Source: a virus. From it: a DNA stretch of 38,985 nt. A program made the position numbers and the translations under genes. The DNA lies in the IMG/VR virus record IMGVR_UViG_3300014202_001569, positions 90,218 to 129,202 of that record; one strand, given 5' to 3'. The notes beneath the pieces were generated by a model that worked only from the letters and a program-made list of their open reading frames with translations, was not told where the DNA came from and did no database searches. Shown here one piece after another: positions 33,478-35,699 of this stretch (position 1 is its first letter; every line of letters starts with the position of its first letter).

Positions 33478-33616
33478 TGGCGACGGAAGGATTTGAACCC
33501 CCGACCTACCGTTTAAGTAACGGTTGCTCTGACGACTTTTCCCCATTTGTACTTCATGGAGAAGGCCGTACAGGTACAATTTGCAACTTGTAGCCTGTCC
33601 TCTGAGCTACGCCGCC
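33478..33616 (-). tRNA. atypical tRNA-Lys(CUU)-like gene with a 66-nt D-loop insertion
   Basis: Acceptor GGCGGCG/CGTCGCC-A, D stem GCTC/GAGC, anticodon stem ACCGT/ACGGT with loop TACTTAA, T arm GGGGG-TTCAAAT-CCTTC. Confidence 0.8.
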
Positions 33617-33832: not shown

Positions 33833-34009
33833 TCAACCCTTCATAATTTTAAGACGGAATTTAGCCTTATCCAACTTGGCTTTTTCCTTCTGATACTCTT
33901 CGGCGGAAACATTCGTCTTGTAATTCTTGGAGTCAAGCCGCTTACGCAGAAAGGCAATGTATTCCTCAGTCTGCTTGATTTCCTGTGCCTTCGTTAGTTT
34001 TTTCTTCAT
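33833..34009 (-). CDS. small basic helical protein (58 aa, not in ORF track)
   Basis: MKKKLTKAQEIKQTEEYIAFLRKRLDSKNYK... Confidence 0.55.
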   Translation of the reverse strand: MKKKLTKAQEIKQTEEYIAFLRKRLDSKNYKTNVSAEEYQKEKAKLDKAKFRLKIMKG

Positions 34010-34253
34010 CTTCTATCCATTGCTGACGGGATTTCAATGCTAATTGCGCCCAATTATATTGCTCCGTCTCCTCAAATGGGATGCCATTAAGCATATCGCA
34101 AAGCACTTCGGTATCATAAACTTGCAAAAGACTATCTATGTCGTCTGCTAGTATAATGACCTTTTTCCCTTGCTTAAAAAGCTGGCGAGCTTCGGCAAGC
34201 TTAACCTTAAAGGTTTTAGGGTCAGAAACTCGAATGATAGTAGGTATTTCCAT
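33966..34253 (-). CDS. hypothetical phage protein
   Basis: ATG at 34253 (MEIPT) directly after the twin tRNA 3' end; the ORF-track extension to 34322 runs through the RNA. Confidence 0.5.
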   Translation of the reverse strand: MEIPTIIRVSDPKTFKVKLAEARQLFKQGKKVIILADDIDSLLQVYDTEVLCDMLNGIPFEETEQYNWAQLALKSRQQWIEDEEKTNEGTGNQAD

Positions 34254-34255
34254 AG

Positions 34256-34410
34256 TAGCTAAGGAGGGACTTGAACCCACACGTTCATTTAAGAACAGGT
34301 TTCGCGTATGCCATTTCGCCACCTACCCATATAGTGGGCAGGGTGGGACTTGAACCCACACGCTCTTGTTCAGAGAGCAAACCCCGCGTATACCATTTCG
34401 CCACTTAGCT
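34256..34410 (-). ncRNA. twin (back-to-back) tRNA-Leu-like RNA lacking anticodons
   Basis: Two units, each with D arm, variable arm and T arm; cross-complementary acceptor strands; GGGTTT/AAACCT helix between units. Confidence 0.8.
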
Positions 34411-34437
34411 AAAAATTGGGAGCGGGCCACTCCCTAA
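34411..34437 (-). terminator. hairpin plus T-tract directly upstream of the twin tRNA
   Basis: GGGAG-TGGCCCG-CTCCC followed by AATTTTT, after the stop of 34442..34762. Confidence 0.45.
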
Positions 34438-34441
34438 GTAT

Positions 34442-34762
34442 TTACACGACCTTGACTTCCTTCGTCTCAAAGTAAGTCTCGCACCGCTTCACGAATGCCT
34501 TAACCTGTTCCTTGATGGACGGTGGCACCGTGGACTTCTTTGACTTCTTATTCTCAAGCCGATCATTGATACGGCCCTCGGCAATCTCCAGACCCCGCGT
34601 GCGGTTAAACTTATCAGGAGTCTTGCCAGTCAGCTTGCACTTACTCCAGCCGACCAACACCTTCTTTTCCTTGCCCTTCTTCACCCGCTTAGCGAGCAAC
34701 ACGCCCGCCTTGAGCCGCTGGCCCTTGCGCTTCTTACGGACATACTCCATCAACTGCTTCAT
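34442..34762 (-). CDS. basic phage protein (G-x-S-x-C...D-x-F...G-x-x-IA-x-x-R motif)
   Basis: VLVGWSKCKL...DKFNRTRGLEIAEGR; AGGAGG RBS. Confidence 0.6.
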   Translation of the reverse strand: MKQLMEYVRKKRKGQRLKAGVLLAKRVKKGKEKKVLVGWSKCKLTGKTPDKFNRTRGLEIAEGRINDRLENKKSKKSTVPPSIKEQVKAFVKRCETYFETKEVKVV

Positions 34763-35683: not shown

Positions 35684-35699
35684 TGGTACAATTGCAATT
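35684..35699 (-). repeat. 16-bp junction motif, copy 17
   Basis: Exact copy, 8 nt after the TAA at 35708. Confidence 0.95.

Follow-up and report, generated by a model that had tools for sequence, protein, structure and literature searches.

The window analysed here is a 38,985-nt stretch of viral DNA that corresponds to positions 90,218 to 129,202 of IMGVR_UViG_3300014202_001569 and forms the final 39 kb of this 129-kb record. On its minus strand it contains a 155-nt element (34256-34410), which we call the twin, in which two tRNA-Leu-like bodies without an anticodon appear to be nested in each other: an outer body and a permuted inner body share one helix, and their acceptor stems are closed crosswise by strands of two different units. 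This architecture had been put forward in a preliminary description made from the window sequence without database searches, and it is now backed by compensatory changes in two independent homologues. Based on this, we consider it very probable that the strand-swapped, two-headed nested fold is real. Judged from the sequences, the twin represents a family of RNAs that is real, under selection and apparently not yet described, and that is accessory in a clade of ~600-kb phages.

Re-reading of the window sequence reproduced exactly the minus-strand letters that had been given for 34256-34410. The twin is present once in the 129-kb record, runs from A1 to A155 with sharp borders, and scores 200 bits with R1, a covariance model that we built on the window sequence alone. 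Unit A starts with the 5' strand of the outer acceptor, AGCUAAG (34404-34410), followed by D arm A, GCG-AAAUGGUAUA-CGC, which is of the tRNA-Leu type (34386-34401), by linker strand 1, GGGUUU, one side of the shared helix (34379-34384), by hairpin A, GCUCU-CUGAACA-AGAGC (34362-34378), by T arm A, GUGGG-UUCAAGU-CCCAC (34343-34359), and by the 3' strand of the inner acceptor, CCUGCCC, with its discriminator A at 34335 (34335-34342). An A/U-rich 6-nt loop, CUAUAU (34329-34334), caps the inner acceptor stem and leads to unit B. This unit comprises the 5' strand of the inner acceptor, GGGUAGG (34322-34328), D arm B, GCG-AAAUGGCAUA-CGC (34304-34319), linker strand 2, AAACCU (34297-34302), hairpin B, GUUC-UUAAAU-GAAC (34283-34296), T arm B, GUGGG-UUCAAGU-CCCUC (34264-34280), and finally the 3' strand of the outer acceptor, CUUAGCU, with its discriminator A at 34256 (34256-34263). 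All these parts lie on the minus strand.

The cross-unit pairings hold as they had been described. AGCUAAG pairs with CUUAGCU (34257-34263) in seven out of seven Watson-Crick pairs, CCUGCCC pairs with GGGUAGG at all seven positions, including one G-U, and the two 6-mers GGGUUU and AAACCU pair mutually at all six positions, also including one G-U. In a script-based check of the complete nested structure, only one of the 45 proposed pairs was not standard, a U-U in the stem of T arm B that had gone unmentioned in the preliminary description; the other 44 were standard. The statement that neither unit can close its own acceptor stem holds for unit A, which forms four of seven pairs, and is slightly overstated for unit B, which forms six of seven in the window (two G-U pairs and one G-G mismatch), against five and four of seven in the two homologues. 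Folding of the whole twin compared with the separate units agrees with the nested arrangement: the nested structure has an energy of -52.5 kcal/mol, compared with a minimum free energy (MFE) of -55.0 kcal/mol, and the units alone reach -21.4 and -15.8 kcal/mol. Three elements are contained in the MFE structure of the window sequence, namely the helix of the outer acceptor, the 6-bp helix of the linker and the hairpin of the inner acceptor, and the folding z-score of the whole twin is -2.28. With positions held fixed in random sequence, chance would produce the three cross helices with probabilities of ~2.7e-4, 2.7e-4 and 1e-3. Furthermore, a script was run over 1.34 Mb of DNA, mostly from phage tRNA clusters, that contained 455 pairs of neighbouring T arms; crosswise closure was found in this family only.

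Further evidence comes from homologues. Inspection of the region downstream of a gene for a 106-aa protein, the syntenic anchor, in 11 lineages and searching with R1 yielded two further members in related phages, both matching the model over its full length: L099 (618-773; 160 bits) and L100 (1917-2068; 155 bits), the latter identical in three separate ENA assemblies (L100, L101 and L102). Both occupy the same slot, 3' of a homologous 106-aa gene. Over the three distinct sequences, the nested fold is 96.3% paired and contains nine double-changed pairs, a result equalled by none of 500 shuffles; controls in which the fold was slid along the sequence gave 38-54%. The three cross-unit helices are 100% paired in all three sequences, with one compensatory pair in the outer acceptor, four in the linker and three in the inner acceptor. 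Thus, position 6 of the outer acceptor changes from A-U in the window to G-C in both homologues, the linker goes from GGGUUU/AAACCU through GGGUUC/GAGCCU to AAGCCU/AGGCUU, with four of its six pairs double-changed, and the inner acceptor goes from CCUGCCC/GGGUAGG to CCUACUG/CAGUAGG. Hairpin B adds one compensatory pair of its own, U-A to C-G. The homologues are therefore neither ordinary tandem tRNA-Leu genes nor devoid of compensation, as they carry eight compensatory changes in the cross helices. In the alternative in which each unit closes its own cloverleaf, the two acceptor helices are 66.7% and 71.4% paired, with zero compensation and constant mismatches at 1:72 and 3:70. The same three cross helices were recovered by RNAalifold on a separate MAFFT alignment, and the outer acceptor stem is present in the MFE structure of all three sequences. 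Alignment bias is not a concern here, because the relevant columns are ungapped and flanked by invariant blocks.

The distribution of the changes points in the same direction. Conservation runs exactly from A1 to A155: identity is 81-86% within the twin versus ~50%, the chance level, in the flanks. The loop of T arm A does not vary in any copy, the discriminator A of the inner acceptor is retained in all three sequences, and the inner-acceptor loop has an identical length across all homologues. As had been noted for the window, the units differ most at the swapped strands: their D and T cores are identical at 36 of 38 positions, whereas the acceptor and linker strands agree at 8 of 20 (Fisher p = 9e-6), and per-genome comparisons gave 36-38 of 38 versus 8-12 of 20 (p 4e-6 to 7e-5). 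Invariant cores together with diverged swapped strands argue for selection and not decay, since decay would scatter changes evenly. An identical sequence in an independent JGI assembly (L058) speaks against an assembly chimera. Two other readings of the element were dropped. Firstly, a protein-coding function is not tenable because no reading frame is open across all three members, each frame being interrupted by stops in one member or more. Secondly, an attP site or a tRNA-fragment duplication does not fit, given that both units have complete D and T arms and that the structure covaries.

tRNA-Leu character and absence of an anticodon

ARAGORN called no tRNA gene and no tmRNA in the whole window, and Rfam at gathering scores gave no match to the twin. 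At relaxed thresholds, the Rfam tRNA model (RF00005) aligned with the two units end to end, with 26.0 and 22.6 bits compared with a gathering score of 29. In these alignments, which include both D arms and both T arms, the anticodon region was skipped and the acceptor pairs were marked as mismatched. Set beside tRNA-Leu genes, each unit reads as a tRNA-Leu that has 6 nt, following G26, in place of the 17-nt anticodon arm.

The assignment to tRNA-Leu stood up to comparison with annotated genes: among 30 viral genes that carry the same D-loop/T-loop signature, 26 were called tRNA-Leu by ARAGORN. The D arms read GGCGAAAUGG-CAGA/UAUA-CGC, and D and T arms are of the tRNA-Leu kind. Direct reading identified A73, U8, A14, A15, G18G19, the A after G19-N, the U before the T stem, and U54...A58. 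The Escherichia coli Leu identity set (A73, A15-U48, G18G19, A20a and the D/T tertiary pairs) is present in both heads of all three sequences; it should be noted that each body combines the D arm of one unit with the T arm of the other. It has been reported that E. coli leucyl-tRNA synthetase (LeuRS) requires A73 and the D/T hinge (A15-U48, G18G19, A20a, U54-A58), and not the anticodon or the variable arm (PMC9976931). The same paper cites Larkin et al. 2002 for the finding that tRNA-Leu variants without anticodon and variable arms can still be charged.

The two hairpins correspond to the variable arms. Side by side with tRNA-Leu genes, they retain the 'stem-GU-T stem' junction known from the variable arm of tRNA-Leu, and each of them is preceded by the 3' strand of the shared helix and followed by a T stem, which is the connectivity of a variable arm; hairpin A occupies this position in the inner body and hairpin B in the outer body. 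Across the copies, the hairpin loops measure 6, 6, 6, 7, 7 and ~9 nt and differ in sequence, and because both length and sequence vary, none of them is an anticodon loop. We also considered the hairpins as real anticodon arms with GAA, UAA or UAG in the loop. This was ruled out by the loop sizes of 6 to ~9 nt, by the failure to keep U33 and R37, and by the variable-arm connectivity. No anticodon loop was found in any of the copies in any arrangement of their parts, and an anticodon arm with a 5-bp stem and a 7-nt loop is absent. The loops do hold U-R-R-A cores (UUAAAU and CUGAACA at 34283-34296 and 34362-34378 of the window, UUAGAU twice and AAUAGAG in L099 and L100), and when the closing C is included, two of them resemble Leu anticodon loops that are one unpaired base short (CUUAAAU and CUUAGAU). 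This likeness may be a trace of the origin of the hairpins or a recognition feature.

Genomic setting and distribution

The genes around the twin are all on the minus strand and belong to no Pfam or PHROG family; the same proteins were found on a 623-kb contig. The upstream 106-aa gene, used as the anchor to reach homologues, occupies 34442-34762, and the downstream 95-aa gene occupies 33966-34253, with its ATG 2 nt past the twin and without a Shine-Dalgarno sequence. Both have homologues on many metagenomic contigs, and relatives have the 95-aa gene without the twin; a contig in SRR12594517 has a 220-nt gap behind a homologous gene. The 5' end of the twin is directly preceded by a terminator-like hairpin, GGGAGUGGCCCGCUCCC (34434-34418), followed by AAUUUUU (34411-34434 in total, minus strand). 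In L056, the closest relative for which DNA is available (88% identity in the downstream protein), the flanking genes touch and exactly the block formed by hairpin and twin is absent, which indicates that the twin is a discrete, optional cassette. In other lineages of the 106-aa gene, the slot has no gap or is filled by different elements. A partnership between the twin and the 106-aa gene was considered and set aside, because their linkage is an ascertainment effect of the homologue search and is therefore not evidence.

With respect to transcription, the nearest upstream copy of a phage-specific promoter-like motif, AATTGCAATTGTACCA, is located at 35684-35699 (minus strand) and is the probable start of the twin transcript; the promoter role of the motif was assigned partly on its spacing to leaderless ATGs. 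In L099, the motif CCAGTTGTACC is located 9 nt upstream of A1. This is the spacing seen for leaderless ATGs, and transcription in L099 therefore probably starts at A1. At the other end of the twin, the window sequence 34251-34256 reads as the discriminator A, then CU, then the ATG of the 95-aa gene, without a Shine-Dalgarno sequence; if the RNA were cut behind A155, the remaining mRNA would have almost no leader, in keeping with the apparently leaderless style of this phage. In the homologues, normal Shine-Dalgarno sequences occur 13-15 nt after the twin. The A-CUA ends and their overlap with the next ATG have thus turned out to be peculiar to the window phage and are not kept in the homologues.

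Other structured elements occur in the same slot or nearby. Directly 5' of the twin in L100 (1834-1908, plus strand) is a 75-nt three-way junction of -34.6 kcal/mol (z = -7.0; none of 200 shuffles was as stable) that terminates in the promoter-like motif CCAGTTGTACC. In L094 (2329-2478, plus strand), a different candidate for a structured RNA, of 150 nt, follows the 106-aa gene in this slot; it is closed by GUUAGGGG...CCCCUAAC (z = -2.3) and does not match R1. RNA cassettes seem to have a hot spot in this slot. In the window itself, a second odd tRNA-like element (33478-33616, minus strand) is found in the same operon, ~640 nt downstream. Its ends are those of a tRNA, its interior contains a large expansion, and it matches R1 with 16.7 bits through the acceptor, D and T parts only.

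Searches for further members were made in several collections. Pattern scans on D-loop/T-loop anchors, which all three members satisfy, gave only ordinary tRNA-Leu or tandem tRNAs in IMG/VR, JGI metagenome contigs and GTDB genome contigs, and BLAST of the twin against the INPHARED phages returned three short tRNA-like pieces only. The 373-kb relative G036 was scanned in its entirety with the crosswise-closure script, under strict and relaxed settings, and with Rfam, and no twin was found. These searches also drew attention to other tRNA-like sequences. In G036 (IMGVR_UViG_3300003310_000099), L194:9431-9578 matches the Rfam tRNA model with 43 bits, contains an insert of ~75 nt in the anticodon loop and is missed by ARAGORN, as are several 65-nt tRNA-like matches in L193 (5704-5768, 6409-6473). 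In G020 (IMGVR_UViG_3300029288_000063, 253 kb), ~350 nt of a jumbo-phage tRNA cluster (L083:1690-2030) is left uncalled by ARAGORN. The modules in this region are permuted and tRNA-like, with a T arm, a GAAA-closed acceptor hairpin, a Leu-type D arm and an outer stem ATGACGC/GCGTCAT, and Rfam YrlA matches them with 26 bits (gathering score 69).

Possible maturation, activity and role

We favour the view that the twin is a gene for a stable, non-coding, excised two-headed tRNA-Leu mimic that acts through its acceptor/elbow heads; on the sequence features described above, this is probable, with a good deal of room for other explanations. In the fold shown by covariation, the shared helix serves as the 'anticodon stem' of both bodies, so that two L-shapes form a pseudo-symmetric pair, each with an elbow and a 7-bp acceptor arm. 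Enzymes of tRNA processing would excise the twin from a polycistronic transcript, RNase P cutting at A1 unless, as in L099, transcription starts there. The 3' end at A155 would be made by an endonuclease or by exonucleases, after which a CCA-adding enzyme of phage or host would add CCA. The loop A76-CUAUAU-G83, a candidate site for RNase P or trimming, may be opened in a similar way, which would leave two chains joined by 20 intermolecular base pairs. None of the six 3' ends (two heads in each of the three sequences) has an encoded CCA. This makes it relevant that a class-II nucleotidyltransferase of the CCA-adding type, of 529 aa, is encoded outside the window at G000:C1:43650-45239 (plus strand; phrog_2244, E 2.8e-38; PF01743, 89.8 bits).

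Neither head could decode. As LeuRS reads A73 and the D/T elbow and not the anticodon, either head could be bound by this enzyme and would probably be leucylated. Our confidence in any specific cellular role is low. The most likely role, although speculative, is that of a titrating agent or decoy for host factors by which acceptor/elbow modules of tRNA-Leu shape are bound, sensed or attacked; a role as leucine donor, equally speculative, is our second choice after such a decoy or sponge. A bolder version, in which both heads carry CCA and leucine so that a natural RNA with two amino acids would serve as bivalent aminoacyl donor or trap, seems to us quite unlikely. If it were true, the RNA could supply a non-ribosomal reaction with two aminoacyl-tRNAs as substrates, or it could lock two molecules of LeuRS, of EF-Tu or of a defence toxin targeting acceptor ends on an inert scaffold.

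Several observations weigh against an excised two-headed mimic. Firstly, the family consists of three distinct sequences from a single phage clade. Secondly, the D and T stems never vary, and RNAalifold favours D-T pairings there; the support for these stems therefore comes from tRNA homology and not from covariation. Thirdly, the twin was found in three of the 11 lineages inspected, many relatives being without it, and covariance-model searches found no member in 74 other viral records (3 + 28 + 43, the 43 being relatives identified via the baseplate-wedge protein), in which the long matches were tandem tRNAs; these absences indicate that the twin is accessory. Fourthly, in the window the terminator-like hairpin lies directly 5' of the twin with no promoter motif in between, so that transcription would need read-through, and in L100 the promoter-like motif abuts the twin, where its spacing would start transcription inside the twin and not at A1. 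Finally, no LeuRS, L/F-transferase, cyclodipeptide synthase or Ro60 was found in the 129-kb record, a weak negative because ~80% of the ~620-kb genome lies outside this record. As a separate observation, an 863-aa open frame in a more distant member of the clade (44% baseplate identity) matches the LeuRS-specific PF13603 with 30.6 bits (G052:C1:109302-109715; IMGVR_UViG_3300020172_001601, 340 kb); no twin was found in that record.

Other explanations of the same conserved structure have to be considered. It is possible, but in our opinion unlikely, that the twin is never aminoacylated and works as a Y-RNA-like scaffold, that is, as a bivalent tRNA-shaped handle recruiting or bridging two copies of a tRNA-binding protein, comparable to YrlA, which tethers Rsr to PNPase. 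The inner body indeed shares the permuted topology of YrlA (PMC4201824), a weak YrlA match exists in the twin, and permuted tRNA-like modules are present in tRNA clusters of other jumbo phages (L083). However, the YrlA match (34304-34360) has 13.4 bits and is thus far under the gathering score of 69, and the twin contains no Ro-binding helix and no GNCGAAN0-1G motif; the sequence GGCGAAAU sits in a D loop and fails this motif. Furthermore, no match to TROVE (PF05731) was found in G000 or G001, both of which are incomplete records. The strict presence of A73 at both ends, together with full 7-bp acceptor stems, is a better fit to acceptor-end chemistry.

A slightly less probable explanation is that the tRNA shapes serve as processing punctuation, i.e. 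as signals for cleavage by RNase P and a 3' endonuclease in a polycistronic transcript, the excised RNA being a by-product. In this case, the upstream mRNA would gain a protective 3' hairpin, and the downstream mRNA would become nearly leaderless. The position of the twin, always between two genes and 2-15 nt before the next start codon, is in line with this idea, as are the upstream hairpin and the downstream A-CU-AUG without a Shine-Dalgarno sequence that bound the twin in the window, whose phage appears to use leaderless mRNAs. On the other hand, a single tRNA-like body would suffice for punctuation, whereas the second body, the shared helix and the A73 of the inner end are all conserved. 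In addition, a normal Shine-Dalgarno sequence follows the twin in L099 and L100, the L099 RNA probably starts at A1, and the flanking genes work without the twin in most relatives.

It is very unlikely that the twin is a cis-acting 5' leader, regulating or stabilizing the downstream mRNA while attached to it. Although the twin always lies immediately 5' of a gene, and in L099 the transcript would begin with it, the gene that follows is not the same throughout, being of a 95-aa family in the window and of a 107-aa family in the homologues L099 and L100, relatives have both genes without the twin, and the conserved determinants of tRNA processing favour excision. Finally, decaying tandem tRNA-Leu pseudogenes or an assembly artefact with accidental complementarity would agree with the lack of a tRNA call by ARAGORN or Rfam and with the scores of both units under the tRNA gathering score, but these explanations are effectively refuted by the eight compensatory changes, by the invariant cores next to diverged swapped strands, by the identical copies in independent assemblies (L058; L100-L102) and by a chance estimate of ~1e-10.

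An excised two-headed mimic would have several implications. It suggests that non-decoding look-alikes of tRNAs with a specific identity may be something in which huge phages invest, and it directs attention to processes of the host in which the acceptor/elbow half of tRNA-Leu is read: the synthetase, processing enzymes, sensors and tRNA-directed defences. For annotation, the lesson is that tRNA-like genes with swapped halves in phage genomes are missed by standard tRNA finders and by Rfam. The twin is also readily testable, being short, with sharp borders, natural compensatory variants and clear predictions for point mutants in A73 and in the cross helices.

Comparison with known tRNA-like RNAs

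The preliminary description knew of no family with this architecture, and this is consistent with Rfam and with the literature searched, in which we found nothing relevant on tRNA-like RNAs of phages with a nested, twin, dimeric or permuted layout; a 2026 preprint on three new tRNA-mimic families deals with other motifs. Compared with tRNA-Leu itself, the twin is without an anticodon arm, its acceptors are closed crosswise, and two bodies are fused by strand exchange. It fails all three features that define a tRNA, namely detection at curated thresholds, an anticodon arm and an acceptor stem made from the ends of one unit. Minimalist E. coli tRNA-Leu substrates, as cited in PMC9976931 from Larkin et al. 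2002, share the D arm, the T arm, A73 and the 'GU' junction with the twin. In the circularly permuted and split tRNA genes known from red algae and Archaea (PMC3978253, PMC3218864), elements of the 3' half likewise precede those of the 5' half, as they do in one body of the twin. However, these genes mature via bulge-helix-bulge splicing and circular intermediates to ordinary decoding tRNAs, which the twin cannot do: since an anticodon is nowhere present, no canonical tRNA is possible, and the twin is therefore not a permuted or split tRNA gene.

Phages are also known to encode other non-decoding tRNA-like RNAs. Two-piece tmRNAs and the phage tmRNAs consisting only of the tRNA-like domain ('TLD-only') resemble the twin in being non-decoding acceptor/T modules, some of them composed of two chains after processing. 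They differ in having the alanine identity pair G3-U70, no D arm proper and one head, whereas pair 3:70 of the twin is C-G or G-C; the Rfam model tmRNA_permuted matches the twin with 12.4 bits, compared with a gathering score of 47, and the twin is not a tmRNA. RNAs C and D of phage T4 (rnaC, rnaD) are stable, have tRNA-like ends and lie in the tRNA cluster of a T4-type phage, but they contain one T arm each and lack the twin layout. Homology with these RNAs was rejected, as R1 did not match T4 70908-71171.

The closest known system is YrlA (RF02553), which is also found in phages. The inner body of the twin has the same permuted topology, consisting of T arm A, the hairpin CCUGCCC-A-CUAUAU-GGGUAGG and D arm B, and the tRNA-like domain of YrlA is likewise attached via the 'anticodon-stem' position. 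In the case of Mycobacterium smegmatis YrlA, a loop-closed 7-bp acceptor stem, cutting by RNase P and the attachment of CCA in vivo have been reported (Chen et al. 2014, PMC4201824). YrlA, however, carries one tRNA-like domain on a Ro60-binding helix and is encoded beside a Ro60/Rsr gene, whereas the 'handle' of the twin is a second tRNA body with a free acceptor end. Thus, while the known cases of tRNA mimicry, namely tmRNA, YrlA and viral tRNA-like structures, are single modules, the twin would represent a new building principle, in which two tRNA-Leu bodies are fused via the exchange of acceptor strands and one shared 'anticodon' helix, and are kept together by compensatory evolution.

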